Positions 10,809-56,187 of a DNA stretch of 64,000 nt are shown piece after piece (within the stretch, counting starts at the first letter, position 1; each line of letters opens with the position of its first letter). Origin of the DNA: Anaerolineae bacterium (lineage in GTDB: Bacteria > Chloroflexota > Anaerolineae > CG2-30-64-16); the NCBI GenBank assembly GCA_034432655.1, contig DAOUBP010000096.1, positions 1,849 through 65,848 of the forward strand, read 5' to 3'. The position numbers were made by a program, and so were the translations under genes. The notes beneath the pieces are model-generated. The model was not told the DNA's origin, searched no databases, and worked only from the letters and a program-made list of their open reading frames with translations.

Positions 10809-10845
10809 CGCATTTTGACGGTATAAAAGGAGACATAGAACGACA

Positions 10846-31831: not shown

Positions 31832-33040
31832 ATGCTGGGCTCGTCGGCGTGCTCACCTGCGCCGGGCCAGCGCATGGCAGTGCGATGGAGAGTTTTTTTG
31901 AGCGGTAACGATAAACTGACGCTGAAGAAACTGGCTTCGGTTGATTGGGGTTCACTGGTGCGCGGGGCTTTTGATTACAATGTGCGCGCCCATTTTCAGA
32001 CGCTTCCCCCCAGAGTCTTACAGTTGATCACTAACTACCGCTGTAATGCCCGCTGTGTCATGTGCAACATCTGGCAGATGCCACATAAGCACGAGATGAC
32101 AGTGGGCGAGCTGGCGGCGCTGATGGACCCTGATCCGATTTTCGACCAGATCGAGCAACTGACCATCGCCGGCGGCGAGTCATCGTTGCGCACCGACGTG
32201 GTGGAGCTGGTCGGTTACACCCTTCAGCGCATGCCGAAACTGCGCACCCTCTCGATGGTCACCAACGGTTTTCTGCCGCCGCGGGTTTTGCAGCAAGTAG
32301 CCGGGGTGTTGGAGCTGTTGGAACCGCGCGGGGTGAAGCTGAGCATGTCGGTCTCGCTGGACGGCATCGGCACCATGCACGACCGGGTGCGCGGCATCCC
32401 CGGTGGCTTTGCGAAGGCACTGGAGACCCTGACCGGTTTGCAAGCGTTGCAGAAAGAGCACGACTTCTGGCTGGGGGTTGGTTATGTGGTGATGCACCAG
32501 AACCTGCGCCACGCGCGGGAGTTTCGTGATTGGGCCAGGGCGCGCGGCATCACCGTCGGCTTCCAACTGGTCGGCTTCCACGAGAGCTATGTGGGCAACC
32601 TCGACCGGCAGAACGACGTGGACTTCCGGCCCGAAGACCGGGAGGAGCTGATCGCCTTTATGCAGGAGCTGGCAGAACAGCGTTCGCTGCGCAATTACCC
32701 CGCGTTCTACTGGGCCGATATGCTGCGTATGTATCGCGACGGCGCGCCGCGTACCACGCCCTGTCCTTTCACCCTGGAAGGGCTGGCGCTGGACGCCTAC
32801 GGCGATGTTTTCTACTGTCTTTCCACCCCGGCCATCGGCAACGTGATCCGCGAACAACGCTCGGTGAGTGACATCTACTACGACCCTAAAAACCTGCATT
32901 ACCGGGCCCAAGAGATGCGCAAGCGCATCTGCACGCAGTGTAACAGCGCGTGCGGCACCGAAATCGCCATCAAGAAGGATGTGAAGAAATATCTGAGGTT
33001 CCTGGTGACCGGGAACCCGCCAAGAGGAGAACATCTATGA
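31832..33040 (+). CDS. Radical SAM enzyme with C-terminal Cys-rich (SPASM/twitch-like) extension
   Basis: C-x3-C-x2-C in NYRCNARCVMCNIW; C-terminal CPF...C...CTQCNSACG; true start may be an internal Met; stop overlaps next gene start (ATGA). Confidence 0.65.
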   Translation: MLGSSACSPAPGQRMAVRWRVFLSGNDKLTLKKLASVDWGSLVRGAFDYNVRAHFQTLPPRVLQLITNYRCNARCVMCNIWQMPHKHEMTVGELAALMDPDPIFDQIEQLTIAGGESSLRTDVVELVGYTLQRMPKLRTLSMVTNGFLPPRVLQQVAGVLELLEPRGVKLSMSVSLDGIGTMHDRVRGIPGGFAKALETLTGLQALQKEHDFWLGVGYVVMHQNLRHAREFRDWARARGITVGFQLVGFHESYVGNLDRQNDVDFRPEDREELIAFMQELAEQRSLRNYPAFYWADMLRMYRDGAPRTTPCPFTLEGLALDAYGDVFYCLSTPAIGNVIREQRSVSDIYYDPKNLHYRAQEMRKRICTQCNSACGTEIAIKKDVKKYLRFLVTGNPPRGEHL

Positions 33041-36012
33041 AAAAGAGACAATTGACCATTCTGGCAGCTATCAGCGCCGTCGTCCTGCTGGTAACCGCTG
33101 CGGCCGTCGGCGCCGCGCCCGCCAGCACCCGGCCGGCCGCCGATCCCTTGCCTGGCGAACGGCCGGCTGCACAGGCGCCCGCAGCCGTGCCCGATAACCT
33201 GGCCGCGGGCCGGGCCCCGGGCGTTTACTACCTGGATTACGGCGGGACGATTGTGGACCCCACGCAGTATCCGGTGCAGGGCGCTCTGCGCTTTTTCGGC
33301 TGGAGCACTCTACAGACCGGGCCGAACAGTTACAGTTGGAACGCGTTGGACAATTGGATCGCGGAGCGCAAGGGGCGTGGGCTGAGCACCGGCGTCTTCA
33401 TCAGCACCTACGACGGCAAGTACGACGGCGACATCCGTTCGACTCCCAATTTCGTGATCGAGACCCCGGGCACGATGATCGTAACCCCCGAGTACATCAA
33501 TTACTACCAATTCAGCCAGAACGGCAGCTTTGAGACCTCCACCCCGGTGCATGGTTATCTGTATGCCTGGGACAAGGCGGGCGATGCTTCCGGTGAGGTT
33601 GCACCCGGCGGCAGCCACGCGGCGAAGCTGGGCGGTGTGGAGGGCGGCACAGGCAGCATCACCCATTGGACCGTGCGCGTGCCGGCCATGCCGCCGGAGC
33701 TGACCAGCGGCACCAAGATGGAGCTGAAATATAAGCTTTATGTTGCTACCACTGACGTTAACCCCAACGCCGACCAGTTGTTCGTGGAACTTCTGGATCA
33801 GGAGAGCAATTTGCTGGCCAGCGTTGCCGCCCACTCCAACACCAGCGACGCCACCGGGACCTGGCTCAACATCGGCCCATTGGACTTAAGCTCCTATGTC
33901 GGCCGCGAACTGCGGCTGCGCTTTCGCGCGTTGAACGATGCGACCGCGCCCACCACCTTCTGGGTGGACGACGTGGAGCTGCGGGTGCGTCTGATCATCC
34001 CCAAGTATTGGGGTGATCCGTACAAGAACCTCTATCGCACGTTCGTTACTGAGTTGGGTAAGCGGTTGAGCGGCAACAGTGATGTTGACTTCGTCGCTAT
34101 CGGCACCGGCCTGCACGGTGAGACCCAGCCGTGCGACACCGAGCACCAGGGTTACCTGGAGGCTGCCGGCCTGAACTCTGACTTATGGGTGGCCACGGCA
34201 AACGAGATCACCAGCATGTACAGGGCGGCGTTCTCCGACAGCAGGGGGAACTTGAAGAAAAACCTGTTGCTGCAGTATGCGCCGTATTTTAAATACGCCT
34301 GGGAACGCGAAGCGATGAGCCGTTTCGCGGCGGAGAACGGCGTTGGCCTGTCCTACAATGGCCTGCTGCCGGACTGGGTGGGCAGCTATAGGAGCGACGG
34401 CACCGCTTCCTACGACCCCATCCGCAAGTATTGGAGCCTCGTCCCGGTGGCCTGGGAGACGTACACCTACATGCTGTGCACGCCGGTCTTCACCTATTGG
34501 TCCCTTTTTAGCGCGCTGGACAAACACGCCGATTATGTGCGCATCGGGGACGACTTGCTGACGGGGCCGCAAGGCACTTCCAACAAGCCGTTCTTCGAAT
34601 GGGCGAAGAAGTATTGGGGCCAGACCGGACAGACCACGCCGGGCGCCTGGGTGGTGATGCGCGAGCATCGCAACCCCACCCCTTACTGTCACTCCTCGTC
34701 CTATCCCACCTACGTGTATCAGGGCTCGGATGGTGGGCCATGGATCTACGTCCCCGGCGGCGATGTGCGGGGGTCCACCTACCCGCAGTTTGGCAACTAC
34801 TCTTTCTACCTGTACCAGGATGATGGCATCCCCGGCGGCCGCACGGTGCCTGAGACGAACGACAAGGGGGCTGACAGCCGGTATGCCTTTAATCCTGTAA
34901 CCGGTGCCAAGTGGACCGATGCAGGTTTGGGCAACTGCCCAACGGTCAACGATTACGCCAGCGTACTTTACCCGCCCGATTACCCCTGCAACAAACAGCC
35001 ATATAATCCTGATCTGCCGCCTCTGGGCTCGAACCCGAGCAATTACTACGCACCTTCCTCCTGGACCGACGCGGGGAAGGAAGCGTGGGTGGTGCGCCGC
35101 ACCGACCAGGACACAGGCAACCGCTACATGTGGTTTGTGTTCGACAACAGCTTCATCAGTGATGGCGATTCGAAGATCCACAGTGTCACAATCACCGTCA
35201 AGTACTTCGACATCGGCACCGACACCTGGACCCTGCGTTACGACAGCAGCAGCGGTGAGAAGGTCGCCGGCACGATCACCAAGACCAACACAAAGCAACT
35301 GAAGGAACAGGTCTTCACCATCACCGACGGCAAGTTCTCCGGCCGGCTGACGGGCGGCGCCGACTTCGTGTTGGACTGCAACAACGACGGCAACGAGTGG
35401 GTGCACATGGTGGAGGTGGTTAAATTAAGCTCCGTGACGCCGACGCCCACGCCGACCGCGACCGCAACGGCTACGGCCACGCCTACTATCACCCCGACGG
35501 CTACGCCTTCCCCCACGGGGACGCCGACCACGGGGATTGTCACAGGTTATACATTTCATGATCTGAACGGTGATTTTGAGAAAGGCGCAGGCGAACCGGG
35601 CCTGCCCGGCGCAGTGGTGGTGCTCAAGCCGGGCCTGGTCGGCACCACCGAAGCTTACACGGCTACTTCCGATGTGAACGGCCAGTTTGTCTTCGGCGCG
35701 GTGGCGCCTGGCCAGTACAGGATCGCCGTCAAGACGGCGCCGGCAGGGTTCCAGCCCCTCCTAGTGGATGCGATCCTGGTGGTCAGCGTCAATGCGACCA
35801 CAACCTTCAATATCCCGCATCAGCTTGCGCCGACTGCCACGCCGACGGCGACCAGCACGGCCACGCCGACGGCAACACTGACGGCTACACCGACGGCGAC
35901 CAGCACGGCCACGCCGACGCCGACGCTGACGGCGACGCCGACCGCAACCTTGACGCCGACGCCTGTTCACAGGCGAACCTATCTGCCGTTGGTGCTTTCC
36001 AGCGCTCCATAA
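33037..36012 (+). CDS. Secreted GH-like (TIM-barrel-type, family unassigned) protein, paralog 1: CBM4/9-like module (NGSFE...), SdrD-B-like domain, TP linkers, C-terminal YLPLVLSSAP
   Basis: AGGAGA RBS; signal peptide MKKRQLTILAAISAVVLLVTAAAVGA; shares G-x-[YH]-GE-[TN]-x-P and APY[FY]KY blocks with genes at 40301 and 43991. Confidence 0.8.
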   Translation: MKKRQLTILAAISAVVLLVTAAAVGAAPASTRPAADPLPGERPAAQAPAAVPDNLAAGRAPGVYYLDYGGTIVDPTQYPVQGALRFFGWSTLQTGPNSYSWNALDNWIAERKGRGLSTGVFISTYDGKYDGDIRSTPNFVIETPGTMIVTPEYINYYQFSQNGSFETSTPVHGYLYAWDKAGDASGEVAPGGSHAAKLGGVEGGTGSITHWTVRVPAMPPELTSGTKMELKYKLYVATTDVNPNADQLFVELLDQESNLLASVAAHSNTSDATGTWLNIGPLDLSSYVGRELRLRFRALNDATAPTTFWVDDVELRVRLIIPKYWGDPYKNLYRTFVTELGKRLSGNSDVDFVAIGTGLHGETQPCDTEHQGYLEAAGLNSDLWVATANEITSMYRAAFSDSRGNLKKNLLLQYAPYFKYAWEREAMSRFAAENGVGLSYNGLLPDWVGSYRSDGTASYDPIRKYWSLVPVAWETYTYMLCTPVFTYWSLFSALDKHADYVRIGDDLLTGPQGTSNKPFFEWAKKYWGQTGQTTPGAWVVMREHRNPTPYCHSSSYPTYVYQGSDGGPWIYVPGGDVRGSTYPQFGNYSFYLYQDDGIPGGRTVPETNDKGADSRYAFNPVTGAKWTDAGLGNCPTVNDYASVLYPPDYPCNKQPYNPDLPPLGSNPSNYYAPSSWTDAGKEAWVVRRTDQDTGNRYMWFVFDNSFISDGDSKIHSVTITVKYFDIGTDTWTLRYDSSSGEKVAGTITKTNTKQLKEQVFTITDGKFSGRLTGGADFVLDCNNDGNEWVHMVEVVKLSSVTPTPTPTATATATATPTITPTATPSPTGTPTTGIVTGYTFHDLNGDFEKGAGEPGLPGAVVVLKPGLVGTTEAYTATSDVNGQFVFGAVAPGQYRIAVKTAPAGFQPLLVDAILVVSVNATTTFNIPHQLAPTATPTATSTATPTATLTATPTATSTATPTPTLTATPTATLTPTPVHRRTYLPLVLSSAP
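35980..36000 (+). other. C-terminal YLPLVLS motif (followed by SAP-stop)
   Basis: ...PTPVHRRTYLPLVLSSAP-stop. Confidence 0.75.
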
Positions 36013-36172
36013 CGCGTCTGATACAACGGTAGCGTGTTCTCGACGCTCCGGGCCCTGGTTGCCTGATCCGGCCAGGGTCCGGAGCGTGTCTCTTGTCTCG
36101 GAGACTTCGGCAATGCCTGTTGTCCCGCCTGCCCGCTCACAAGTTCCCGCCCGTGTCCTGGCATCCTCAAGG

Positions 36173-37789
36173 ATGTCAAGATGGTTTCCTCTTGGTATCG
36201 TCCTGTTGATGACGGCCAGCCTGTTTGGGCTTTCCGGAGCGCTCAGTCGAGATGTAGCAGCCCGCGCGGCCGGATCAAGCCAGTGGGTACAAGAGCTTCC
36301 GACGCCGACGCTGGTACCCGGCACCGGCGCGATCGTAGGCCTGGTGTGGCACGATTTGAACAGTAACGGTTTGCGAGAGGCGGGCGAACCGCCCCTGGCC
36401 GGGGTGTTGCTATCCCTGGCACAGTCAAACGGCACCGTTGTGGCCACGGCACTTTCAGGTGAGGATGGCCGTTACCGCCTGGCGAACCTGGATCCGGGCC
36501 TGTATCAACTTGTGGCAACCCCTCCGACAGGCTACCAGCTGACCACGCCGGGCCTGTTCAACGTTTACGTTTCTGCCGGCAATGTGCTGACCATTGATTT
36601 CGGCGCGCGTCTTGTGCCCACGCCGACCCCGACCGCCACCCCGGTGCCTCGTTTGGATACCGACAGTGCAACCTTTGCCTGGTGTGGCAGTGTCATCTAC
36701 GGCACCACGCAAAACAAATCGAACAACGTCAGCAGCTATGGCTGTCGGCCTCATTGGCCCGAAACCGGGCCAGAGGTGGTCTACCGGATAGAGCTTAACC
36801 GGACACAGTCTTTCTCCGCTGCTTTCAGGATGACTACTGCTGATCTCGACTTGTTCCTGTTGCGGAGCGCCTTTCCGGAAAGTTGTGTCGCTGCTGGGGA
36901 CAACTATCTTGCGCTTGAGGCCTCGCCTGGCCTTTATTATCTGGTTGTTGACGGGTATGATGGTGCTGTCGGTGATTATGTGTTGAAGGTGGAGTGCCCT
37001 TTTGAGGTGCAGGCAACTCCTACACCCACGTTCACTCCCTCGCCAACTCCCACGGTCACACCGACCTTCACCCCCGGGCCGACAGCAACCCCAACCGCCA
37101 CACCGATCCCACACTGGCACTACCTGCCCCTGGTCGTGCGGCAGCCGGTTAGTGTCGTGGGCCCCCCTTCGCTGATGGTGTTTCAGCAAGGGCTTCAACA
37201 GTACAACGGGGTTGTTGATACTACTTTGAGCGCCTGGCAGCCCGACACCGCATTGGGCGGAAGTCCCCGCTTGTCGTTGCGTTATAACCAACAGACGGTT
37301 GAAACCACCCACATGGCGCCTTTGTTGCGGTTTGATTTGGGCTTGCTTCCGGCCAGCTCACAGATCGTTTCCGCCACGTTGGCCCTCTACGTGATTGAAC
37401 TGGAGCGGCCTGAGGACATCCGCGGGGAAGTCTATGGCCTGTTGGTGCCCTGGCGCGGTGAAACAGCCACCTGGCGACAGCGGGATGTGGGCCTGCCCTG
37501 GAATCGTCCCGGCGCGCAGGGGGCGGGCAGTGATCACATGGCCTGGCGGAGCGATAGCCAGCTCATCACCAGCAGTGGTCGTTGGGTGACCTTTGACGTC
37601 TCTGGGCTTGTGAGAACCTGGTTGGCGCAGCCTCTATCTAATTACGGCATGGTGGTCCTGGCTCAGCCCGGAGAGAGCGGGAGCAATCTCCAGGTTGATT
37701 TCGCCAGTAGTGAATACGGGGAGGTGAGCCTTCGCCCTAAGTTGACAGTGGCCTATCTGGTGCCTTTGGCTGCCAGTAACAGCCGTTGA
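36173..37789 (+). CDS. Secreted protein: SdrD-B-like domain + PPC/P-domain-like Cys-containing domain + TP linker + internal YLPLVVR + DNRLRE-like domain
   Basis: start chosen at MSRWFPLGIVLLMTASLFGLSGALS signal peptide (ORF opens at 36059); C-terminal 230 aa homologous to the DNRLRE-like region of paralogs A-C. Confidence 0.7.
   Translation: MSRWFPLGIVLLMTASLFGLSGALSRDVAARAAGSSQWVQELPTPTLVPGTGAIVGLVWHDLNSNGLREAGEPPLAGVLLSLAQSNGTVVATALSGEDGRYRLANLDPGLYQLVATPPTGYQLTTPGLFNVYVSAGNVLTIDFGARLVPTPTPTATPVPRLDTDSATFAWCGSVIYGTTQNKSNNVSSYGCRPHWPETGPEVVYRIELNRTQSFSAAFRMTTADLDLFLLRSAFPESCVAAGDNYLALEASPGLYYLVVDGYDGAVGDYVLKVECPFEVQATPTPTFTPSPTPTVTPTFTPGPTATPTATPIPHWHYLPLVVRQPVSVVGPPSLMVFQQGLQQYNGVVDTTLSAWQPDTALGGSPRLSLRYNQQTVETTHMAPLLRFDLGLLPASSQIVSATLALYVIELERPEDIRGEVYGLLVPWRGETATWRQRDVGLPWNRPGAQGAGSDHMAWRSDSQLITSSGRWVTFDVSGLVRTWLAQPLSNYGMVVLAQPGESGSNLQVDFASSEYGEVSLRPKLTVAYLVPLAASNSR
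37121..37141 (+). other. Internal YLPLVVR motif after TP linker
   Basis: ...TATPIPHWHYLPLVVRQPVSVVGPP...; same context (linker, basic/His residues, motif) as the C-terminal copies. Confidence 0.75.
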
Positions 37790-37804: not shown

Positions 37805-39367
37805 TTGGTGAGAACGCAGAACCGAACAGCTTTCAGCCTGAAGGCCCATCCCGCGTGGTTGTGGGCGCTGTGGATCGTGATCACGGGCGTGACTTTGGCC
37901 ACCCGATACAACTGGCCGCTGACCGAAGACGCCGTCATGTATGCCCTTGACATCATGCGGCTCGATCGCGTGGGGCCCAGTGCCTGGCCGGCCGTGTTCA
38001 ACGGCGAGCTGTCGTTCGGCTACTATTGGTTGCTGCTGCAGCTATATCGTCTCTGGCATTCGCACGAGCAGCTTGTGGTTGCCCTGGCCCTGATCAACGT
38101 ATTCAGCAGCGCCATCGTTATCGGGCTTGTGATGTACCTTGCGCAACGATGGTTTGGCTACATCGTAGCTTTTTTTGCCGGGCCGCTATCGGCTCTGGCG
38201 CCTGCGTTCTGGCAGTTAAGCCGATACGGCCACCCAACCATGCCTACCCTGGCGGCCTTCCTGGGTGCTTTGGCCGCTTTGGACCGCGCAATCAGCGACC
38301 GGCAGGTTCGTTGGCTGCCGGCTGCCCTGTTCGTCCTGCTGACGATGGCCGCTTATCTTCTGCGCCTGGATGTTTTGCTGTTGGCCCCGACTTATCTGGT
38401 GTTCGTCGTGTGGCGGGGGCACGCTGTGCGCCGACAAATGGTGCTGGTGTTGGCCCTGTGGGGTGTGGCAGTCATCGGATATCTGGCCATCCGGCTGCTT
38501 GGCCTGGGATATATCTTGACCCCCGGTGGTGGCAGCTTTTTGTTGCACGTGGGGCGGACGTTGCACCACGGTACCCTGGCGAGCAACGTCGCCAAGAACG
38601 CCGCCTTGTGGGCGATGGGCCTTAATCCGCTGGTTGGGCTGGCAGCAGGTGCGACCGTGCTCGGCAGCCTGTGGCGCCGCCAGCTCTGGCCAGCGCTTTT
38701 CCTGGCCGTCTGGTTGCTGCCTGTGGGGGTCTGGTTGCCGTTCTATGCGCTGGATTTCTCGCGCATTGCCACGTTGAGCGTCCCGGCCGCCGCGTTGGCC
38801 GCGGCCTTGTTGCCGGTTCAGTTTGCCCGGCGGAAGCCGTTGCTTTGGTCGGCGGGCTTGTTGGCAGGCGCCCAGCTGGTCATGGCGTTGATCTACCCTC
38901 TGGCTGTACACGTCTACGCGCCGAAGACCGTATATCAGGGCCGGCCGTTGGCTGCTGTGCCGCTCGGCTTTGTGTGGGAGGACACGGTCTTCCGCCAGCG
39001 CTACTTGGATGAGCGTTGGCGCATCGCACAGCAGGTGGCGGCTGTCGAGGATGCAGACGTCCTGATCGTGGGCGCCTCTAATCTGATGTTGTATCGCCTG
39101 GCACTGGCGACGACACGGAATGTCTGGGAGGAGGAGAAAGGGACAGTGGCGGGCATCCCGATCAGCTTGCTCCGTACGGCTCAGAACCGTTTCTATCTGT
39201 TCGATGCCGATGACTGCCCGGGGTGCCGGCAGCCGCTGGCGACGTTGCTCAACGGTTTAGATTCGGGCTCGCTGGCTGTGCATGCGGTGCCTTTCGATAC
39301 GCGCTTTCAAGCGCAGGCGGTTCTGCTCAGAGATGTTGAGTCGGCGCATTGGTTGCAGGGCAGGTGA
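37805..39367 (+). CDS. Polytopic membrane protein with C-terminal soluble domain, GT-C-like (PMT/ArnT-like) candidate
   Basis: 520 aa, ~11 TM in the first 370 aa, early loop TEDAVMYALDIMRLDR. Confidence 0.45.
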   Translation: MVRTQNRTAFSLKAHPAWLWALWIVITGVTLATRYNWPLTEDAVMYALDIMRLDRVGPSAWPAVFNGELSFGYYWLLLQLYRLWHSHEQLVVALALINVFSSAIVIGLVMYLAQRWFGYIVAFFAGPLSALAPAFWQLSRYGHPTMPTLAAFLGALAALDRAISDRQVRWLPAALFVLLTMAAYLLRLDVLLLAPTYLVFVVWRGHAVRRQMVLVLALWGVAVIGYLAIRLLGLGYILTPGGGSFLLHVGRTLHHGTLASNVAKNAALWAMGLNPLVGLAAGATVLGSLWRRQLWPALFLAVWLLPVGVWLPFYALDFSRIATLSVPAAALAAALLPVQFARRKPLLWSAGLLAGAQLVMALIYPLAVHVYAPKTVYQGRPLAAVPLGFVWEDTVFRQRYLDERWRIAQQVAAVEDADVLIVGASNLMLYRLALATTRNVWEEEKGTVAGIPISLLRTAQNRFYLFDADDCPGCRQPLATLLNGLDSGSLAVHAVPFDTRFQAQAVLLRDVESAHWLQGR

Positions 39368-40300: not shown

Positions 40301-43300
40301 ATGCCTCAACGCAACTTTTTTGCTGCCGTCGTGATCGCCTTGGGGTTGGTCGGCCTCCTGGCTTTCGTCGTGCAGGCAGCGTTTCCTGCTGCCTCCGATA
40401 CTCCGGATGTCTTCACCAAAGGCCCTTCTGATGCGGCCGGAGTCTATGTTTTCTATGACTACGAGAACCTGAGCCCATCCCGCTATCCCATCAAGGGCGG
40501 CCATATGCTGGTCACCTGGAAGGCGATCGAAACCGCCCCAGGGGTTTATGATTGGTCGTGGCCCGACGGGTGGATCGCCGAGCTTGCCTCCAAAGGCAAG
40601 TATGTGGGATTCACGGTAGATTCGTACGATGGCGTCTGCTGTGGTGGCAGCGCCGTGCCGTCCCATGTCCGGCAGCAACATCCCAGCTCGGTGATCGTTT
40701 GCAACGGCAATGAGATCCCCCGCTATTGGGATCCTGCGTATCAACGTGCGTGGGGCGATTTCATCCGCGCGGTCGGCCGGCGCTACAACGGTGACCCGCG
40801 TATTGCCTGGGTGCAGATCAGCGTCGGCATCTATGGCGAAACCTCGCCGGCCGAAGGGGAATTCTTCGGCTGTCTGGAAAGCGCCGGCCTGACCAGTGAC
40901 GTCTGGATTGACGTCGTTAAGTGGTCGGTGGATCTGTACCGGGAAGCGTTTCCGGACAAACAGCTCTTCCTGCAATTTGCTCCTTACTACAAGTATCGCG
41001 TCGAGCGGCGTGAATTCACCGACTATGCCGCCAGTCAAGGCGTGGGCTTGAAGCATAACGGGCTAAAGCCGGATACTGACGACGCTTACATCACCGACCC
41101 GAATGTTTCCTTCTATCGCGGCGGCAGCTACGATCCTTTTGCTACATGGGGAGATCGCGTGGCTACAGGCTGGGAAGGATATGAAAACCAGGCCTTCTCC
41201 ATGCGGGGCCGGACCGACTCCATGTGGAGCATTTATAACGCCCTGGACAAGCATGCAGACATCCTGGCCGTGGACACCGATCTTGTGAAAGCTGCCGATC
41301 GCCAGGATTTGTTGCAGTTCGCCAGCCGCTATCTGGGGCGCACGCTGGCCGATACCCCTAGCGTATGGATCGCTCTGCGGGAAACAGAGTACACTTGGTT
41401 TCCGGAGAGGGGCAATTTTGAATTCTGGCTTTATCAAAGGGACAACGCGCCCGGCGGCAAGACTGTGCCGATGTGGCGGGTGGGCTCCGAGCCCGAAGGC
41501 CGGTTTACCCGGCGGACTGATCAGGCCACAGGCAATCCTGATATGTATTTCGACGTAGACGATCGTTATATCTACGGCAATGCCCGCCCTGTGACGGTGA
41601 CGGTGACCTATTACGATCAGGGGTTTGATCGTTGGCAGTTGCGCTACGACGCCATCGGTGATCCCGATAAAGTGGCCGGCACTGTCTATAAGACCAATAC
41701 CTTCACCTGGAAGAAAGCCACCTTTGTGCTCACCGATGCTCAGTTTACCAATCGCCAGCTCGGCGGCACCGATTTTCACATCTGGTGTCTGGGCGATGGG
41801 GATGAGATCATCCATTTTGTAGATGTCCAGCGGCCGGCCGGCGTCACTGTTGAGTTGGAGTTGCAGCCGGGAGTCAACGGCTACAGCGGGGCGTCTGACA
41901 CCACCCTGGACGCATGGTCGCCTGAGACCGCTTACGGTGGTGACACCCTGCTGCGATTGCGCTATAACGCCGGCACGCCTTCCACCCACATGGCTCCGCT
42001 GGTGCGGTTCGATGTGTCTGCGATCCCAGCCGGTGTGACCGTGCTGGAGGCCTATCTTGATTTGTACTTGAGCGATGCCGAGCGCTCCGATCGGGACGTG
42101 GGAGCCGCAGTGCACGGTCTGCTGCGGCCATGGAATGAGTCCGCCGCTACCTGGCAGCGGCCGGCCGCCGGTCAAAGCTGGGCTCAACCTGGCGCCCTTG
42201 GCCCTGGCACAGATCATATCGCAACAGCTTCCGATAGTACGACCGTCAAACTGCCCGCAGGATGGTACAGCTTTAATGTCACGGATCTGGTGAAACGCTG
42301 GGTTGCCGATCCAGCCAGCAACTACGGTTTGATGTTACAGGCGCGTGCGGGAACGGTGCCCACGAATATGGAGGTACGGTTTGCATCTCGTGAGTCCGGC
42401 AACGCTGCGACCCGTCCGAAGTTGCGGGTGAAGTACCTGGTGCAACCGCCGACGCCCACGCCTACACCGACGCCGCGTCAGACCGCAACGTTGACCCCCA
42501 CGCCAACGGCCACCGGGACGCCTACACCGATCGGTGTGCAGCGCTCCCTGGTCAGCCGGCGTGCCTCTCGCGCTCCGGTGATTGACGGCGATCTCGCAGA
42601 ATGGACGCAGCCAGAGCAAGCCGATGTGCGGGTGGGCAAGGTGGATACAGCCGTCGGTCAGGCAGCCTCGCCTGCGGATATCTCTGCCGTTGTCCTCAGC
42701 TATTGGGCCGACGAATGGCTCTACCTGGCGGCCAGGATTACCGATGATATTGTTATTCGGGATAGTGCTCAGATCTGGGAGGATGACGCAATCGAGCTGG
42801 CGCTGGATGCGGCTTACGACCGCCTGCCGGGCGGGGCGGATGACAATCAATTCACCGTGGCCAGCGACGGGACGTTGACCAATTTCGGCTATGCCGCAGT
42901 GCCCGGCGCTCAGGTTGCTGTGCGTCGTCATGCGGCTGGCTATGACATCGAGCTGGCTTTGCCCCTGACCGTCCTGGGTATCGGACGGATGACAGAGGGC
43001 CAGACGCTGGGCTTCACCATCGGCCTGATTGACGATGACGATGGCGGTAACCGCAGTGGCGCCGACGACAGTTATTTGATCTGGGCCGGCAACAACACAG
43101 TGAGCGGTTCGGCTGGCTTCGGCAGCCTGTACCTGGGCCCGCAGTATGAGCTGCCGTCGGCCGGGAGCACGGCTACACCGACGTTTACTCCGACCACGGG
43201 CCCAACAGCTACCAGGACCCCGTCGCCAACGGCAACCTTTACGCATACGCCCACTGTCACGGCGACTTTGACATCTACGCGCACGCCCACAAGGTCGCCC

Positions 43301-43822
43301 AGCCCAACTGCCACGTTTACAGCCACGCCCTTCCTTACACCGACCAATACGCCGACTGCCAGTGCCACGATAGCCCCGGGTTTCGGTGTTGTGGAGGGTA
43401 TGGTATTCTATGACGGGGATGGGGATGGCAACCCCGGTTTCGGAGAGCCGGGTCTCCAGGATGTGACGCTGGCGTTGATGCAGGCCGCCAGCCGGCAGTA
43501 TACGACATTTTCGCGGGCTGACGGCTCTTATCGTTTCTCAGAGGTAACTCCGGGAAACTACAAGCTGGTTGTCGAAGCCTGGCCCGCTGGTTACTATCCG
43601 ATTCATAACGCCATCCTCTTCGCCGTCACAGCCGGCAGTCGGCTGGAGATCAATATCCCGTTGGGCCGCCTTTCGGAGTCCACACCGACCGCGACCGCGA
43701 CACTGACACCTATTTTGCATCCCACCAGCACGTTGACGCCGACCGCGACCTATCCCGCCCCGACCGCAACGGCGACTTCCTCGCCTCGCAAAATCTACTT
43801 GCCTTTGGTACTGCGCCCTTAA
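40301..43822 (+). CDS. Secreted GH-like protein, paralog 2: GH-like domain + DNRLRE-like + CBM9/DOMON-like + SdrD-B-like, TP linkers, C-terminal YLPLVLRP
   Basis: signal peptide [28 protein letters not shown]; [16 protein letters not shown] and APYYKY blocks shared with 33037 gene. Confidence 0.85.
43796..43816 (+). other. C-terminal YLPLVLR motif (followed by P-stop)
   Basis: ...[17 protein letters not shown]-stop. Confidence 0.8.
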
Positions 43823-43990: not shown

Positions 43991-46900
43991 ATGCTGCTGA
44001 GGCAAGATCGTCCCCGCTCCCAACGCAGAAGGTGGATCACGATGAGATTTGGTTTTGACCAGGGAAATCCTGAACCGCATGGCCGGCATTGCCGCCGGCG
44101 GTTCGTGACGCGTATCTGGTGGCTTGCTGTCATTGTCATTGGTTTCGTCGCCCTTCAGAGCTGTCGGCCCTTGCCGACCCCGCCGCCACCTCCTACCGCC
44201 CCCCCTTCTCCCTTTCCTGCAGAAACCATTCCTGCAGCGTTGACCGCCACGCCCGAGGCGGCCCGACCATTTATCTCTCTTGAGGAACTGAATGTGGTAC
44301 CGGGCGCATATGTGGCCTGGAGCCTGCCGGAGTACGCTGTGCCACCAACCCGCTCGCCCGACGATCCTCTCTATCCGGGCCATCATATCCTGGGCCTTGA
44401 TTGCCTCACCTATCTCGATCAGGTATGGCCGGTGGAGAACAGTATCTCGTGGGCGAGCTACGACAGGTGTTTGAACGCGCTGGAGCGCCGAAAAGTCAAA
44501 CTGCCCGACGGCAGAGAGGTCCCCCAGCCGATGATACTGACTTTGCCGCCATCCTTCATGGATCCGGGCGGCAGCGGCACCGCGCGTGACCCTTTTATCA
44601 AGCTAATCGGCCCGGCGTGGATGCTGAACGACACTTACAGGGTCCGGTTTCAGACTGCAGATGGAAAATGGTATCAGACCTGGCGCTATGATCAGGCGTT
44701 CACTGACGCGATGGTCCGCTTGATTCGCGCGGCAGCAGAGCGCTATGACCGCCATCCTGGCGTCAGCCTGGTGCGCCTTTACGTGGGCTTCCAAGGGGAA
44801 AATCAGCCCGTGCGGGCGTGTGAGCCCTGGTGGCCCGGTTCTCCCGACTGTGGTGCGCAGCAAGAAGTGTTGCCTGCTGCCGAGAAAGTGGTTTCCTGTG
44901 CCACCTATACAACGTTTGTCCGACGGCTGGCCCTGGCTGCCGGCGAGGCGTTTGCACACAAGCCGGTGGCGGTGATGATGTCGGTACAGCCGTGTGCCAA
45001 TCTAAGCGGCACCATTCATCGGTGGGAGTTGTTTGATCAGAATCTGCGGCCGCTCCCTGTCGGCTATGTGAACGCCGGCCTGCAGCCGGACCGGCCGGAC
45101 GCCATGGAGGCGCCCGACAAGCGCTGGGCCGGATGGCGTCTGTACAGCACCGGTCAGACGATCGCTGCTTGGGGGGCGCCCTATGTAGCGGAATATGCCG
45201 AAAATCCTTCGGGCGGCAGCGTGGGCGCACAGGATCGCAGTCAGTACATGTATTGGAATACCCTGATGGCAGCTGGCTCTGGTGCCCGCTGGGTGCTACA
45301 TCATCCCGCCTGGCAAGGTTACGATTCTGCGCCCATGTGGGAGGTGGTGGACTATTGGCTTAACAGCCCGGCGCGTGCCTGGCTGGTCTTTCGTGATCGT
45401 GAGTATCCTACTTTTGAATACAGCCCAGAGGACGGCAACTCGGGCTGGATCGGCGATTTCGCCCGCTACTTGATTCTTCTCAACCCACAGGATGCCCCAC
45501 AGGCATGCGCTCCGGAGGTGCAAGCCACCGCCCAAGCGGCCAACACCGCTGTCGCTAAATGGCAACGGGTTACGCCGGCCTGTCCCGGCCCCCTGCTGCC
45601 AACGCCGGCCATCACACCCGCTTCGACCCCCAGCCCGGGGGCTGATACGCTAAACCGACTTTTCAACCGTCAAGCCCGTCGGCTAGATCCCGGCAGAAAG
45701 CTATACATCGCGGCTTCCGAAAACTGGCAGGGTTTCGGGACGATCGGGCAAATAACTGTCACGGTATCTTATCTCGATATTGGCACCACGCCGTTTGCGG
45801 TCATCCTCCCCGACGGGCGAGGAGCGGAACAAGTGCAAGCAGTTCCCAAGCAGGGCTCGGGGCTCTGGAAACGATTTACGTGGTCGCAGACGGCACAGGT
45901 CGCCAATCTCCTGGACGGCAGCGCATTCATGGTGATCGCTAATCCGGCTGCAGGACAGGCTACGTATCTGCACGAAGTGTTTGTGGATCTCGGGAATAAT
46001 GATCCAGAGATACCTTTTCTGCCTGTTACGCCGACGGTGTTTGTACCAACATCGGTGCCTCCGGCAACCTCAACACCGTCAGCGAGCCCGTCGCCCCTGC
46101 CTTTGGCCACCAGGACACCTACAGCCAGCGCCACGTTGAGCCCAACGCGCACCTCCACCCCGACGGCCACCAGGACCCCCACGCCCAGCGCCACGTTGAG
46201 CCCAACGCGCACCTCCACCCCGACGGCCAGCCAGACTCTGACCCCTGCTGCTGCTACAACGTCGGCCAGCCCCCTGACCTGTATGCCTCGCCCTGTCGCC
46301 AATGTGCTGTTGGGGCCCGGGCCCAAGGGTATTGCTGCGGGTGAGGACGGCTTCTTTGTCGGTTTGTTCAACTTGAGCCAGGTGGCGCGGCTGCGTCTTG
46401 CCGGAGAAGGAGTCGTCTGGCTGGTTAAATCCGGCCCGGGGCGCACCAACGGCCTGGCGGCCTGGCAAAATATCGTTGTGGCTACCAACCGGGATGAAGG
46501 GACGGTCACATTGCACGATGCCGGCACCGGCGTGCCATTGGCAATCTTGCGCGTGGGCGCTCTACCGTGGGGCGTCGCTGCGGCAAACGGCCGGGCTTAT
46601 GTGGCCAATTTCGGCGACAACACGGTCGCGGTGCTGGATCTGGTTCAGCGGGGTGTAGTGGCTGTGGTTCCTGTGGCGTCCGCTCCTGTAACGGCCGTTG
46701 CCGATGATCGTCAAGCTTTTGTGTTGCATCTGGACGGGCAGATCACACAGCTAGACAGCACAGGACGTCTGTTGGCTCAGGCCAAGGCCCAGGCGCCCAA
46801 CGCACGCGGCCTGGCCTGGGACCAACTGCGAAACCGTCTTTATGTCGGCAGCCAGTCAGGCGTTGTGGTTGCGCTGGATGCATCCACCTTACGGGAGGTG

Positions 46901-48175
46901 GCCCGTTTTCCGTTGCCCGGGCCGGCCTACGCGCTGGCGTTCAACCCCGGCACGGGACGCGTGTTTGCCGTGGACGCAGTCAACGATCGCCTGTATGTCA
47001 TCGAGCCTGATGGCAGCGGCGTGGGACAGCTCTCTCTGCCTCCACAAGGTGCAACGGAAGGCGGCCAGGGAATCGGGGTGGCGAGGAATCGCATCGCGGT
47101 TGCCAACTACGCAGCCAGTAGCGTGAGCTATTTCGATGATGCGGTGTGCGAAGCCAGATTGACCCCGGAAGCTGTCACGCCGAGTCGTACTGCGACTGCC
47201 TCCCGAACGCCAACGCCATCGGTCACCCGCACTTCCACGTCGTCTCCCACCCATACCCCGGTGCCGACCGCTACGGCTGCTGCGCCCCTGACACCCACGC
47301 CGACCCTCAGCCCCACCTCATCACCCACCCCGGCTGTGGTGCGCGCTAAGATCGAGATCGTCTGGCCGCACGGGGGTGCTTCGGTGCGTGAGGCCCGGCT
47401 GGCCAATATCACGGCCTATCTTCTGGCAGGGGATGGCTCGGATCCGGCAGCAGCGTTGAACCCGCCGCCCTGCGATTGGCGCCCTACCGTCAGATTGTGG
47501 GCTGCTCTGAATACGGAGCCGGCCAGGCCGATCGCTGTGGGCCAGAAGCGGTTTGTGAACGAGGAGGGGCGAGTATTCCCGGCCTGGGACTTCAACGATG
47601 TGGACGTCAGCCTGGCACGCGACCTTTCTAACAAGTTGACCTTCTTCGTCACGGTGGATGGGGTCCGCACCCTGCACAACATCTGGGTTCATGCCGCGGA
47701 CGCGCGCACGCTGTTCCCTCAGCAGGCCGTGCCCGATGGCACCACTGCGCGCCGGCCGACGGCCGTGGATGCCCGGATCCAGATCGTCTGGCCTCACGAT
47801 AATCTGCCGGTAAATCAGGCCAGATTGGCCAACATCAACTCGGTGCTGTTTCAACAAGGCACCTTGCAGGCTTTCGCGCCGGATGTGGCCTGGTCGCCGA
47901 CGGTGCGGCTGCATTGGGCTTTGAACCACGAACCTGAACCGCCGACGGGCAGCGGTTTGATCGGCACCCCGCGCATCGTAAACGCCACGAACGGAACGCG
48001 TTTCCTGGCTTGGGATTTCAACGACGTGGATGTCAGCCCGGCGCAAGACGCGCTCAATAAGCTCTTTTTCTGGATCAGCGTGGATGGCGTTCCGACTTAC
48101 AGTAACGTCTGGGCGCACGGCCAGGATGCCCGCACGATTTTCCCTCAGCCTGACGTGCTGAACAGCTGTCGTTGA
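43991..48175 (+). CDS. Giant secreted/lipoprotein-like protein: GH-like domain paralog 3 + TP linker + YVTN-type beta-propeller + TP linker + two tandem ~150-aa C-terminal repeats (no YLPLV motif)
   Basis: VSLVRLYVGFQGENQP block homologous to GH-like paralogs; YVANFGDNTVAVLD, LYVGSQSGVVVALD, RVFAVDAVNDRLYVIE propeller blades; repeats KIEIVWPHGGASVREARLANI... / RIQIVWPHDNLPVNQARLANI... Confidence 0.8.
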   Translation: MLLRQDRPRSQRRRWITMRFGFDQGNPEPHGRHCRRRFVTRIWWLAVIVIGFVALQSCRPLPTPPPPPTAPPSPFPAETIPAALTATPEAARPFISLEELNVVPGAYVAWSLPEYAVPPTRSPDDPLYPGHHILGLDCLTYLDQVWPVENSISWASYDRCLNALERRKVKLPDGREVPQPMILTLPPSFMDPGGSGTARDPFIKLIGPAWMLNDTYRVRFQTADGKWYQTWRYDQAFTDAMVRLIRAAAERYDRHPGVSLVRLYVGFQGENQPVRACEPWWPGSPDCGAQQEVLPAAEKVVSCATYTTFVRRLALAAGEAFAHKPVAVMMSVQPCANLSGTIHRWELFDQNLRPLPVGYVNAGLQPDRPDAMEAPDKRWAGWRLYSTGQTIAAWGAPYVAEYAENPSGGSVGAQDRSQYMYWNTLMAAGSGARWVLHHPAWQGYDSAPMWEVVDYWLNSPARAWLVFRDREYPTFEYSPEDGNSGWIGDFARYLILLNPQDAPQACAPEVQATAQAANTAVAKWQRVTPACPGPLLPTPAITPASTPSPGADTLNRLFNRQARRLDPGRKLYIAASENWQGFGTIGQITVTVSYLDIGTTPFAVILPDGRGAEQVQAVPKQGSGLWKRFTWSQTAQVANLLDGSAFMVIANPAAGQATYLHEVFVDLGNNDPEIPFLPVTPTVFVPTSVPPATSTPSASPSPLPLATRTPTASATLSPTRTSTPTATRTPTPSATLSPTRTSTPTASQTLTPAAATTSASPLTCMPRPVANVLLGPGPKGIAAGEDGFFVGLFNLSQVARLRLAGEGVVWLVKSGPGRTNGLAAWQNIVVATNRDEGTVTLHDAGTGVPLAILRVGALPWGVAAANGRAYVANFGDNTVAVLDLVQRGVVAVVPVASAPVTAVADDRQAFVLHLDGQITQLDSTGRLLAQAKAQAPNARGLAWDQLRNRLYVGSQSGVVVALDASTLREVARFPLPGPAYALAFNPGTGRVFAVDAVNDRLYVIEPDGSGVGQLSLPPQGATEGGQGIGVARNRIAVANYAASSVSYFDDAVCEARLTPEAVTPSRTATASRTPTPSVTRTSTSSPTHTPVPTATAAAPLTPTPTLSPTSSPTPAVVRAKIEIVWPHGGASVREARLANITAYLLAGDGSDPAAALNPPPCDWRPTVRLWAALNTEPARPIAVGQKRFVNEEGRVFPAWDFNDVDVSLARDLSNKLTFFVTVDGVRTLHNIWVHAADARTLFPQQAVPDGTTARRPTAVDARIQIVWPHDNLPVNQARLANINSVLFQQGTLQAFAPDVAWSPTVRLHWALNHEPEPPTGSGLIGTPRIVNATNGTRFLAWDFNDVDVSPAQDALNKLFFWISVDGVPTYSNVWAHGQDARTIFPQPDVLNSCR
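46124..46229 (+). repeat. Perfect ~46-bp direct duplication with 60-bp period inside a linker
   Basis: ccagcgccacgttgagcccaacgcgcacctccaccccgacggcca at 46124 and 46184 (encodes SATLSPTRTSTPTA twice). Confidence 0.85.
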
Positions 48176-48232: not shown

Positions 48233-50428
48233 TCAATCCGTCAGCCGGAGCGCCGGGTCGCCCAGCAGGTTGAAGGTCAGGAGGATATCGCGGACGCCGC
48301 CCAGGGCTTGTGGTAGCGCAGACTGGGCCTGAAGCACCACCTCCCCCAGGGTACGGGACTGCGCGGCATTGTCGGACTTGGCCAGGGCGGCCGCCAGCTC
48401 GCGCGCCAGTAAGCGCTGGTCGGTAAGCACGGCTGCGCTGGAAGGCACCAGCGCGGCGACCGCACCACCGTTCCTGGCGCGCAGAAGCGTTTCCCCCAGC
48501 GAGGGTGTGCTGGGATGTTCGAACAGGCCGCTCAGGCACGTGACGGTGAAAACGACTGGCAGCCGGTCCTTGTTTTCCAGCCTGTCCACGTCTTCCACCC
48601 CGAAGATCTTCTCTTTGGCCCAAAGCGTCACACTGCCGTGGCCGAAGTAGCCGATCAGACCGCGGCCCTCAGCGAAAGCCCGGAGGAGCGCGTTTCGGGC
48701 TGCTGTCCCGTCTTCGGCGATCAAGACTTCATCGGCCGTGTAGCCGGCAAGGCGGTCAGCGAATTCCCGTGTCTCCTCCGCGAAGCCCGGTTCGTCGTTG
48801 TCGGCGATCAGCAACGCCTGTCCTCGCCACCCGGCCGCACCCTCCTGGCGTTCATAGGCCAGCGTCTTGGCCACCATCGTCGCCATCTGTTCGGCGGTTT
48901 GGGCGGGGAAACGGCCCACGGCCAGCGCAGGCCGGGCCTCTGGCCCTTCCTCGAGCAACGCGTACCAAACGTCGGAGCTGGTCCAGCCGGAGAAGGTGGT
49001 AAACACCGTCTGTGTCGGTACCAGGTCGCGCTCGGTTCCCTTCAGGTAGCCGCGCGGGTCGTAACTGGCGTCACCGGCCAGCAGCAAGAAGCGCGGGGCG
49101 GGGGGTGTCCAAGCGGCCAGGGCCTGCTGCACCAGCGCCTTGATCGCCTCGGGGCCGGCGCGGCCGAAGTTGAAGCGGTCGTAGACTTGTTCCACATCCA
49201 CGACCGCTACCCGCAACCCCTGGGCCTGGCGCGCAGCCACCAGCGGCTGTAGTGCCGCCCGAAACGCCGGCACTGTCACTATGATCATGTCCGCGCCGCC
49301 GGGCCAATTTCGCAAGTCGGTGCCAGAGGCGGCTGCCACGGCTGCGGGTCGGCGCAGCCCGCCTTCCGTTGCGATGATAAACCGGCGTGGGGTGCCGTCA
49401 GAAGCAAAGCGCAACACGCCTTCCCGCCATTCGTATCCCTGCAGCGCAATCGGGGCCGCAGGATCGGTGATGTCCCATAAGGCGACCGGTGGCGCAGCCA
49501 ATCGGACTGCAAAACCGGCAGCTGCCCCGGCAAATGTCAGGCCGCCACCATCAGCGGCCAACTCGCGGTGATAAGTGATCTCGATCCAGTCCAGCTGGAT
49601 GCTATCCACCGGGGCGCCGGTATCATTGGGCAGCCAGAGGCTCAGCCGGTTTTCGCCTGTCCGCAAGCTGCCGGAGGCCAGGGTTGTCTCGAGGATGTAC
49701 GGGCCCGGCCCGTCCCAATGCGCGTCGGCAGCCTGAGTGCCGTTTACCGTCAACACCAGGTGGTGGTCGGGGTCTATCGTCCCGGACGAAGAGCTGCCGT
49801 AGAGCCCCAGGCGCACGACGGCTTCACCGTCGGCTGCTTGTGGGACATCGAGGTTGATGGTCAATTCGGCCGGCGCGAAAAGTGCCTCCCAATACCAGCG
49901 GTTTTCACCGGGTTTGGCCAGCCCCCGGTAGTGGCGTCGTTGCTCACTGCGGAGGGTGTCGGTGACGGTTGCGGTCAGGGCGGTCTCAGCCGTGGGGGCG
50001 GCATCTCGTTCCACGATGGCCCGTGAGACCTGGTCCTCAGCTCTTCGGCTCAGCCAGTAGATGTTGCGGTCGGTGTATGCGTCCGGCCCCAACGCCTGGC
50101 CATAGAAGCGCAGGCTGCGGCCGCGGCCCTCGCCGGTTAACTGGAACGCGACCGGCTCGCCACCTGAAGTCAGGGTAAGCTGGTCGGGGCGCGCGCCGGC
50201 CAGGTCGAACCCGCTGCGCGCCAGCACGTCCGCCGAAACCGTGTAGATGCCGTCAGCTTCCACGGCCAACTTGATCGTCTCAACGTTGGGCGCCTGGGCA
50301 GGGGTGCACCCGGCCAGCAGCAGCAGGAGGATCAACAGAAACAGGGCCTGCGGGGCAGGTCCCACATGCGGCGCTGACTGTGCCAGGGCGGATGATTTCA
50401 ACCGGTTGGTAGCCAGGTTCCGATTCAT
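48233..50428 (-). CDS. Clan CD / family C25 (gingipain/PorU-like) cysteine peptidase, putative lipoprotein
   Basis: signal + lipobox LLLAGC; His motif GYFGHGSVTLWA and Cys motif LPVVFTVTCLSGLFEH; ends LLGDPALRLTD. Confidence 0.65.
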   Translation of the reverse strand: MNRNLATNRLKSSALAQSAPHVGPAPQALFLLILLLLLAGCTPAQAPNVETIKLAVEADGIYTVSADVLARSGFDLAGARPDQLTLTSGGEPVAFQLTGEGRGRSLRFYGQALGPDAYTDRNIYWLSRRAEDQVSRAIVERDAAPTAETALTATVTDTLRSEQRRHYRGLAKPGENRWYWEALFAPAELTINLDVPQAADGEAVVRLGLYGSSSSGTIDPDHHLVLTVNGTQAADAHWDGPGPYILETTLASGSLRTGENRLSLWLPNDTGAPVDSIQLDWIEITYHRELAADGGGLTFAGAAAGFAVRLAAPPVALWDITDPAAPIALQGYEWREGVLRFASDGTPRRFIIATEGGLRRPAAVAAASGTDLRNWPGGADMIIVTVPAFRAALQPLVAARQAQGLRVAVVDVEQVYDRFNFGRAGPEAIKALVQQALAAWTPPAPRFLLLAGDASYDPRGYLKGTERDLVPTQTVFTTFSGWTSSDVWYALLEEGPEARPALAVGRFPAQTAEQMATMVAKTLAYERQEGAAGWRGQALLIADNDEPGFAEETREFADRLAGYTADEVLIAEDGTAARNALLRAFAEGRGLIGYFGHGSVTLWAKEKIFGVEDVDRLENKDRLPVVFTVTCLSGLFEHPSTPSLGETLLRARNGGAVAALVPSSAAVLTDQRLLARELAAALAKSDNAAQSRTLGEVVLQAQSALPQALGGVRDILLTFNLLGDPALRLTD

Positions 50429-50434
50429 GGGCCC

Positions 50435-51496: not shown

Positions 51497-51516
51497 GTCC
51501 GTTTGGATTGTTGTTT

Positions 51517-56056: not shown

Positions 56057-56187
56057 CTCGGCCTTCCTTTCAGTGATGCTGGGAAATGGCGGTGGCAGAC
56101 CGCCTGCAAGTCTGCTCATCAAAAGGGTGTCTGTCCGCCCTGGCTATACCACGCGAGCCTGGGTGACCCCTGTCGCCTCCAGAAATT

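Follow-up and report, generated by a model that had tools for sequence, protein, structure and literature searches.

Short motifs shared by many secreted proteins of one genome have been described in several bacterial systems, and the closest to the one treated here is the YLP-box. It is curated in NCBIfam under the name 'YLP-box putative sorting motif-containing protein' through two short models, namely NF050076 (sort_motif_YLP; 11 positions, cutoff 15 bits) and NF053834 (ultrashort_CTERM; 10 positions, cutoff 10 bits), and the literature, searched in full text for the name of the box, for strings of the YLPLV type and for sorting signals of Chloroflexota, gave no relevant paper, experimental data, mechanism or partner enzyme. 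To our knowledge, the type IX secretion system (T9SS), whose proteins carry a C-terminal domain (CTD) as signal, is confined to the Fibrobacteres–Chlorobi–Bacteroidetes (FCB) group. The present analysis concerns a 64,000-nucleotide stretch of DNA, referred to below as the window, from an Anaerolineae bacterium of the phylum Chloroflexota (contig DAOUBP010000096.1 of assembly GCA_034432655.1, positions 1,849 to 65,848 of the forward strand), in which one copy of the motif, YLPLVVR, lies in the middle of a gene for a secreted protein of 558 residues. It is nearly certain that this internal YLPLVVR is a true copy of the Chloroflexota YLP-box, kept by selection and placed at the junction between a stalk and a DNRLRE/CBM96 domain.

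The motif is encoded by TAC CTG CCC CTG GTC GTG CGG at 37121-37141 (+) and forms residues 337-343 of the protein, P0001, with 215 residues downstream of it. The open reading frame (ORF) that holds it occupies 36059-37789 (+); the start is ATG 36113, as in a database protein of 558 residues that is 100% identical to the window gene, and ATG 36173, taken as the start in an earlier, sequence-only reading of this DNA, is residue 21 of P0001. That reading had proposed that a copy of the motif seen at protein ends lies mid-protein, in a Thr/Pro-linker context and ahead of a DNRLRE-like domain, and that it divides the ORF into two modules. All of this was borne out: the copy by translation and by a position-specific scoring matrix (PSSM) that was derived from internal copies and recovers the terminal ones, the linker by a Thr/Pro-rich stretch directly before the motif, the domain by its matches to curated families, and the division into modules by a paralogue made of the N-module only and by a positional orthologue with a different C-terminal domain. 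The layout of the gene is as follows.

36113-37789 (+): target gene, 558-residue secreted protein P0001, in an ORF open from TTG 36059.
36173-36271 (+): N-terminal hydrophobic segment, probable signal peptide or anchor, MSRWFPLGIVLLMTASLFGLSGAL...AARAAG (sequence inspection; AlphaFold2 helix 24-53).
36341-36550 (+): SdrD_B / CnaB-like stalk domain (PF17210, 60.3 bits; structural matches SdrD, UafA and CnaB2).
36668-37000 (+): PPC (pre-peptidase C-terminal)-like beta domain with conserved cysteines (fold match 5sv5, template modelling score TMt 0.68; predicted local distance difference test, pLDDT, >90).
37010-37120 (+): Thr/Pro-rich linker 2 of 37 residues, predicted disordered (pLDDT <50 for residues 301-347; column counts).
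37121-37141 (+): internal YLP-box YLPLVVR (translation, pattern scan, column counts, PSSM).
37169-37759 (+): DNRLRE / CBM96-type domain, predicted polysaccharide-binding (NF033679, 86.2 bits, cutoff 34; PF24517, 40.7 bits, cutoff 26).

The signal peptide expected of YLP-box carriers is represented in P0001 by a basic and hydrophobic N-terminus (MSRWFPLGIVLLMTASLFGLSGAL...AARA), recognised by inspection and by the AlphaFold2 helix of residues 24-53. A short Thr/Pro linker, the first of two, lies between the SdrD_B and PPC-like domains, and a 9-residue spacer separates the internal box from the DNRLRE/CBM96 domain, the sequence across the box and its flanks being ...HYLPLVVRQPVSVVG.... The AlphaFold2 model of P0001, built on 53 orthologues, has a mean pLDDT of 84, and no catalytic domain was found in the layout by Pfam, NCBIfam, AlphaFold2 or Foldseek. 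The C-terminal domain, which scores above the curated hidden Markov model cutoffs of both families, is a beta-sandwich with pLDDT >90 whose best structural matches in Foldseek are a chondroitin-sulfate-binding carbohydrate-binding module (CBM; 8wab, TMt 0.80-0.81) and the alginate-binding CBM96 founder (7vbo, TMt 0.67), and it contains many invariant W, D and G positions across the orthologue alignment. A link between CBM96 and DNRLRE domains has been described (PMC9971899), and together with the fold it suggests that this domain of P0001 would bind polysaccharide. As for the middle domain, PF04151 (PPC) gives only faint matches, in homologues of P0001; relatives of this PPC-like domain that carry the ADLDLFLL motif and are 31-35% identical occur in metagenome-assembled genomes (MAGs) of Saprospiraceae/Bacteroidota (L017-L021, about 10001-10975 each), and it is the sole part of P0001 found beyond Chloroflexota in the genome scan.

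The conservation of the internal copy was followed in proteins and in genomes. A protein search gave 211 homologues, of which 53 full-length ones, about 38-80% identical, were aligned, and a genome scan with 10 family sequences against one genome per GTDB species gave 14 Chloroflexota loci (Anaerolineae and 'Chloroflexia' MAGs), with the family present in 12; the named homologues and genome loci together are Chloroflexota, Anaerolineae and Caldilineae MAGs. One uninterrupted ORF runs through the junction in all 53 full-length orthologues, and the ORF is likewise continuous through the motif in 12 of the 12 GTDB reference loci holding positional orthologues. In the alignment, Tyr is kept in 45/53 sequences, the first Leu in 48/53, Pro in 53/53, the second Leu in 44/53 and the final Arg in 42/53, and these five motif columns carry 3.2-4.3 bits of information compared with 0.7-2.3 in most flanking linker positions; where the strict pattern fails, orthologues have variants of the motif, among them YLPLLPR, YLPLIFP, HLPLVGR and RLPLTMR. 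Basic residues usually stand 2-3 positions ahead of Tyr in the internal boxes of orthologues, and the motif ends in Arg. The order of genes around the target is conserved as well, running from glycosyltransferases through a ~1000-residue YLP-terminated protein, the target, a Bac_transf sugar transferase, a ~1170-residue YLP-terminated protein and a 1394-residue protein to a C25 peptidase.

It might be supposed that the internal copy is an artefact or a chance likeness, whether a recent stop loss or faulty assembly joined two genes or the motif is no more than the opening strand of the DNRLRE domain, and this explanation is hardly credible. The motif is followed by CAG, which differs from TAG in a single base, and TAG stands at the equivalent position in a paralogue, P0068; comparison for a stop after ...LPLVVR nevertheless gave 0 stops in the 53 orthologues and 12 reference loci. 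The uninterrupted architecture speaks equally against a sequencing error making the fusion, a source of error that the sequence-only reading had raised, and the identical protein is present on two contigs, one from an NCBI record and one from a Logan assembly. In the AlphaFold2 model, the first DNRLRE strand begins 10 residues past the motif, too close for a second signal peptide to fit between the two, and neither a signal peptide nor a start context for a separate downstream gene is present. Split-gene orthologues, with an N-module gene and a separate DNRLRE gene, were not seen among the homologues and loci, P0068 being a paralogue in another context. As to the motif being a DNRLRE strand, or being docked on the SdrD_B or PPC domain, this is ruled out by its low pLDDT, the lack of secondary structure and the other DNRLRE domains that have no box ahead of them. 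Chance similarity was to be recognised by uninterrupted orthologues with a degenerate motif; the first half of this was found, but the motif is the best-conserved island of a variable linker, and chance is rejected because the motif is conserved in orthologues rather than degenerate. Of the proposed fusion by a lost stop, recent loss does not hold, while an ancient accretion of domains at the junction does (P0068, P0060). Judging from the aligned orthologues, the architecture is ancestral to the family and there was no stop loss in this genome. The other option of the sequence-only reading, an internal site of cleavage or attachment, may hold and is taken up below.

The internal copy was then compared with the terminal copies of the window. 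A six-frame scan gave six of these, each 0-4 residues from the stop codon; a first, stricter Y-L-P pattern scan had matched 5, the YIPLLLR copy lying outside that pattern.

5740-5760 (+): terminal YLP-box YLPLVIR-stop, in ORF 2038-5763, a 1241-residue esterase-DNRLRE-BNR-SdrD_B protein.
10508-10528 (+): terminal YLP-box YIPLLLRGLDS-stop, in ORF 5903-10543, a 1546-residue protein.
13885-13905 (+): terminal YLP-box YLPLLLRTE-stop, in ORF 10846-13914, a 1022-residue protein.
35980-36000 (+): terminal YLP-box YLPLVLSSAP-stop, in ORF 32950-36012, the 1020-residue upstream neighbour of the target.
43796-43816 (+): terminal YLP-box YLPLVLRP-stop, in ORF 40301-43822, a 1173-residue DNRLRE-CBM9-SdrD_B protein (NF050076, 16.0 bits, cutoff 15).
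51520-51540 (-): terminal YLP-box YLPLIAR-stop, in ORF 51517-53829, a PorU-like C25 peptidase.

Orthologues of the 1020-residue upstream neighbour are syntenic and likewise YLP-terminated. The PSSM was trained solely on internal copies from orthologues about 56% identical or less, and with it the seven window sites are the top 7 of 52,005 positions in all six-frame ORFs, scoring 14.6-26.0 bits with the next position at 10.7; the internal copy itself scores 15.9 bits and ranks 6/52,005. In 20 shuffles the best PSSM score of each was 7.5-14.6, so the lowest real site merely equals the best shuffle. The seven copies are alike at the protein level and form no DNA repeat, because their synonymous codons differ; a DNA repeat or mobile cassette as the source of the copies is ruled out by these differences. 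A Thr/Pro linker stands directly before 5 of the 7 window copies, and none stands before the copies in the 1241-residue protein and the C25 peptidase. Against the curated models, the C-terminal fragments of window proteins reach 13.2-16.0 bits (NF050076) and 13.1-14.3 bits (NF053834), and the internal copy of orthologue P0002 (RRLYLPLIVRQ) reaches 16.0 bits with NF050076, above the cutoff of 15, and 13.7 with NF053834. The context typical of the YLP-box, that is, a Thr/Pro linker, basic residues and a Chloroflexota host, is also that of the target, in which linker 2 ends in HWH where orthologues mostly have R/Q-R-x. The extreme C-terminal position from which 'ultrashort CTERM' takes its name is not that of the internal copy, which 215 residues follow.

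In structural terms, the box behaves as a free linear element. In the model of P0001, residues 301-347 lack secondary structure and have pLDDT <50, against >90 in the domains on either side, and the DNRLRE domain begins at residue 353. Similarly, the model of the C25 peptidase encoded by 51517-53829 has a pLDDT of 92 and a predicted template modelling score (pTM) of 0.89, and its last ten residues, which include YLPLIAR, average 52 and are undocked. Terminal copies in the window, homologues and loci have 0-5 unconserved residues beyond the box. Other positions along the chain are also represented: in P0080 the box is at residues 241-247 of 971, between two Thr/Pro linkers; in P0106 and P0109, related proteins of ~930 residues with SdrD_B repeats, it is at residues 46-52, about 10 residues past the predicted signal-peptide cleavage site (LWAQ-TTEEAAARLYLPLVVQNSDPS), and between these two the box is conserved and the flanks are not; in P0110, P0125 and P0172 it is 15-39 residues from the protein end; and in P0104 it directly follows a PPC domain. 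Since boxes thus occur internally, near the N-terminus and 15-39 residues from the end, recognition would not need a free C-terminus. The other DNRLRE domains of the window and loci have no YLP-box ahead of them, and the first Thr/Pro linker of the target has none.

What follows the box has changed in the course of evolution. P0068, a 320-residue paralogue of the N-module with 52% identity, ends exactly at ...MYLPLLIR, then TAG, and the 218 nt downstream are 54% GC and have no DNRLRE coding potential, the gene itself being 68.5% GC. The N-module and box recur in P0056 and P0059-P0062 (YLPMALR, YLPLMVR), where they are followed by a second Thr/Pro linker and a BNR/Ycf48-like domain; among them, P0060 is the positional orthologue of the target, being preceded by a 1060-residue protein that ends HVYLPLLLR-stop and followed by Bac_transf. 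In P0072 and P0075, a second SdrD_B domain comes after the box. Because P0068 ends at the box and P0060 bears BNR/Ycf48 instead of DNRLRE, it appears well supported that domains downstream of the box were added or exchanged long ago. In the terminal YLP proteins of the window, the cargo domains (esterase, DNRLRE, BNR, CBM9) stand upstream of the SdrD_B-TP-YLP cassette, where TP denotes the Thr/Pro linker.

Candidate processing enzymes are encoded in the same locus, the designation resting on association.

48233-53829 (-): trio of C25 peptidase, ~350-residue membrane-anchored protein and C25 peptidase (48233-50428, 50435-51496, 51517-53829).

The two C25 proteins score 262 and 279 bits with Peptidase_C25 (cutoff 23) and have an invariant GHG...NC, the candidate catalytic dyad. 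With the PorU model NF033707 they give E values of 1e-76 to 1e-78 and 257-264 bits, below the equivalog cutoff of 420, and in structure they come closest to the T9SS sortase PorU (6za2, E = 1.4e-31 over 806 columns), ahead of gingipains. The gene between them, 50435-51496 (-), encodes a 353-residue protein that matches no family; it begins with a signal peptide, and at its C-terminus a transmembrane helix is followed by a basic tail (...LIWRASRLR-stop). The C25 / X / C25 trio, X being this middle protein, is conserved in two other genomes (L024 8132-15587; L025 10001-15639), and in several MAGs C25 and target orthologues share a contig. Beside the trio lie genes for an M14 carboxypeptidase and an S8 subtilase (53942-56122 and 56218-58377, -), the S8 subtilase being adjacent in both the window and L024. 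No curated partner-enzyme name was found in NCBIfam among the genes of the locus. As an observation apart, the M14 carboxypeptidase and the S8 subtilase have a second shared C-terminal ending, ...NHFYIVRG...AAFSFALTAGN-stop in the former and ...NHFYVAYA...GGEFDFALTRP-stop in the latter. Among orthologues of the YLP-tailed C25 peptidase, the proteins noted here being P0148, P0151, P0152, P0156, P0161, P0162, P0166, P0195, P0199 and P0214, the C-terminus has one of three forms, a YLP-box, nothing, or an extra domain of ~100 residues ending ...NYFYVVQAAN...NRVGEFDFALTPG, so that the YLP-box and the 'GEFDFALT' domain seem able to replace one another as C-terminal signals.

Several neighbouring genes are of interest in themselves. 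Directly downstream of the target, between it and the sugar transferase, 37805-39367 (+) encodes a 520-residue protein that spans the membrane several times and matches PMT_2 (GT-C mannosyltransferase-like) weakly (E = 1.4e-4); the gene is without counterpart (E < 1e-10) in any syntenic Chloroflexota locus examined and appears to be a lineage-specific insertion. The 1394-residue protein (43991-48175, +) has an N-terminal membrane anchor and no Pfam match, only a match to YVTN beta-propeller repeats; it is syntenic between the YLP proteins and the C25 genes, with 41-46% identity in L006, L007, L010 and L011. Radical-SAM genes recur beside the locus (window 59595-60683, +; L023 5435-6586; L024 3464-5628; L026 2633-3652; L027 5102-6130), one such gene stands immediately between target orthologue and sugar transferase in the P0057/P0065 lineage, and in L024 and L025 they are accompanied by PqqD-like and ScmC-like genes, a set that hints at a peptide-modification module similar to those for ribosomally synthesised and post-translationally modified peptides (RiPP-like).

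With regard to mechanism, the YLP-box would be a position-independent linear motif read in trans, and docking or attachment at the box without obligatory loss of the downstream domain is the reading preferred here, its probability being put at just under even to about even. A putative reader would recognise the box irrespective of C-terminal position; the usual order of cargo, SdrD_B, Thr/Pro linker and YLP-box would be permuted in the target family, with stalk and box first and the cargo (DNRLRE, or BNR in P0060) after; the box would be the docking or attachment point that keeps the protein at the cell surface; and the downstream CBM96 domain would stay attached and bind acidic polysaccharide, possibly the product of the neighbouring glycosyltransferases, so that the protein would act as an adaptor between cell surface and acidic polysaccharide. 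Docking is favoured because discarding everything after the box would cost the only ligand-binding domain, which is strongly conserved; the strong constraint on the C-terminal domain itself and its likeness to chondroitin-sulfate- and alginate-binding CBMs argue against its being a disposable leaving group. Several points weigh against docking. Non-terminal boxes outside the target family are few, and queries of 23, 30 and 50 residues around the window internal copy (HWHYLPLVVR) gave no reported NF050076 or NF053834 match, although HMMER filters may drop such short matches. The most divergent clade (P0057, P0058, P0063-P0065) is without Tyr in its internal copy (QRLPLTMR, QKMPLALR), and same-contig neighbours of this clade keep canonical terminal boxes (VYLPLTLSSAEG then stop, IYVPLVIAEND...stop, VYLPLVIRGG-stop); since only the internal Tyr was lost, internal and terminal copies are not under identical constraint in every lineage, and at the internal copy the constraint can relax. 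Furthermore, the two PorU-like C25 peptidases together with the S8 and M14 peptidases of the locus fit proteolytic processing at least as well, the permutation argument is inferred rather than measured, and the reader or receptor of the YLP-box is still putative. Lineage-wide co-variation of internal and terminal boxes, which would indicate a shared reader, was not found, and the P0057/P0065 clade contradicts it.

The chief alternative is that the box is a sortase-like or proteolytic site, at or just upstream of which a dedicated peptidase, with the PorU-like C25 enzymes as candidates, would cut; at terminal copies 7-12 residues would be removed and the new C-terminus possibly transferred to glycan as by PorU, and at the internal copy the 215-residue CBM96 domain would be detached as a released product or CTD-like leaving group. 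This is a serious rival, though less probable than docking. In its favour, a putative role in sorting is part of the name given by the NCBIfam curators, two C25 proteins of the window bear the invariant GHG...NC, resemble PorU better than gingipains in structure and match NF033707 strongly, and the trio is kept in two other genomes and shares contigs with target orthologues. A clan CD peptidase directed at Arg/Lys would also be suited by the basic residues upstream and the terminal Arg; the linker that bears the motif is disordered and exposed, and one natural variant (P0068) stops exactly at the motif. Set against this, the C25 link is guilt by association at one syntenic locus, both proteins fall below the PorU equivalog cutoff (257-264 against 420 bits), and most C25 orthologues bear a YLP tail and so resemble cargo, though PorU too carries its own signal. 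Processing would discard the sole, strongly conserved ligand-binding domain; a leaving-group signal would be pointless 10 residues past the signal peptide, where P0106 and P0109 have the box; and where a terminal copy ends with its Arg, there is no bond after the Arg to cut. In its most specific form, a T9SS-independent PorU-type C25 'sortase' system of Chloroflexota in which the YLP-box is the minimal signal, is cut and couples surface proteins to the locus polysaccharide, the CBM96 domain being a removable, CTD-like leaving group or a polysaccharide-binding factor set free, the idea is improbable. Still less probable is that the box has no localisation role and is a recognition or stop element for enzymes that modify the linker, for example by O-glycosylation of the GT-C / PMT type. 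Five of the seven window copies directly follow a Thr/Pro linker, the next gene downstream is multi-pass and has the weak PMT_2 match, and the locus is rich in glycosyltransferases; however, two window copies have no linker, the box of P0104 directly follows a PPC domain, the target's first Thr/Pro linker has no box, and the PMT_2-like gene is missing from every syntenic locus examined, where the internal motif is conserved.

The deeply conserved internal copy narrows the mechanisms that can be considered, since no free C-terminus would be needed and the box would act as an independent linear element at a junction of domain exchange. Processing at terminal copies would remove 0-12 residues and be nearly invisible, and at the internal copy it would split the 58-kDa protein into about 35 + 23 kDa; because internal processing gives such a large mass change, the target family is the easiest experimental test of cutting versus attachment versus docking, and if the PorU-type reading is true, the target protein is a natural reporter with a mass change of about 23 kDa. 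If the C25 enzymes are confirmed, PorU-type sorting extends beyond Bacteroidota; if they are not, the result is a modest annotation refinement for a Chloroflexota surface-protein family.

Compared with known systems, the locus resembles the T9SS CTD/PorU system of Bacteroidota in having PorU-like C25 peptidases beside many proteins with one C-terminal signal, in that a C25 peptidase itself bears the signal as PorU bears a CTD, and in that the locus polysaccharide is a possible attachment target. It differs in that the YLP signal comprises 7-10 residues and is predicted disordered, whereas the CTD is a beta-sandwich of ~80 residues, and in that the host belongs to Chloroflexota and the C25 proteins lie below the PorU equivalog cutoff. 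Like LPXTG, PEP-CTERM and GlyGly-CTERM, the YLP-box is a short motif common to many secreted proteins of one genome, often after low-complexity linkers. The PEP-CTERM/EpsH signal has been described beside exopolysaccharide genes (PMC1569441), and YLP-box proteins likewise stand beside exopolysaccharide-type genes. In contrast to these tripartite sortase and exosortase signals, the YLP copies have neither a transmembrane helix nor a basic tail after them, what comes after the internal one is a soluble beta domain, and the YLP-box tolerates internal and near-N-terminal positions. A further likeness is to short linear motifs in disordered linkers (strand-addition or PDZ-type docking), which is seen in a 7-residue hydrophobic island with charged flanks, conserved within a variable disordered region and occurring at several chain positions; this is an analogy of mechanism and not a family assignment. 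The nearest relative remains the YLP-box family itself, with which the internal copy has in common the core [RK]-x-x-Y-L-P-L-hydrophobic-hydrophobic-R, the phylum, secreted multidomain proteins and the Thr/Pro-linker context; unlike the curated C-terminal YLP-box, the copy in the target precedes a whole folded domain (215 residues). The terminal motif is known already as a putative sorting signal; what is new is the variant in which the motif stands, conserved, inside a protein and domains have been exchanged behind it.

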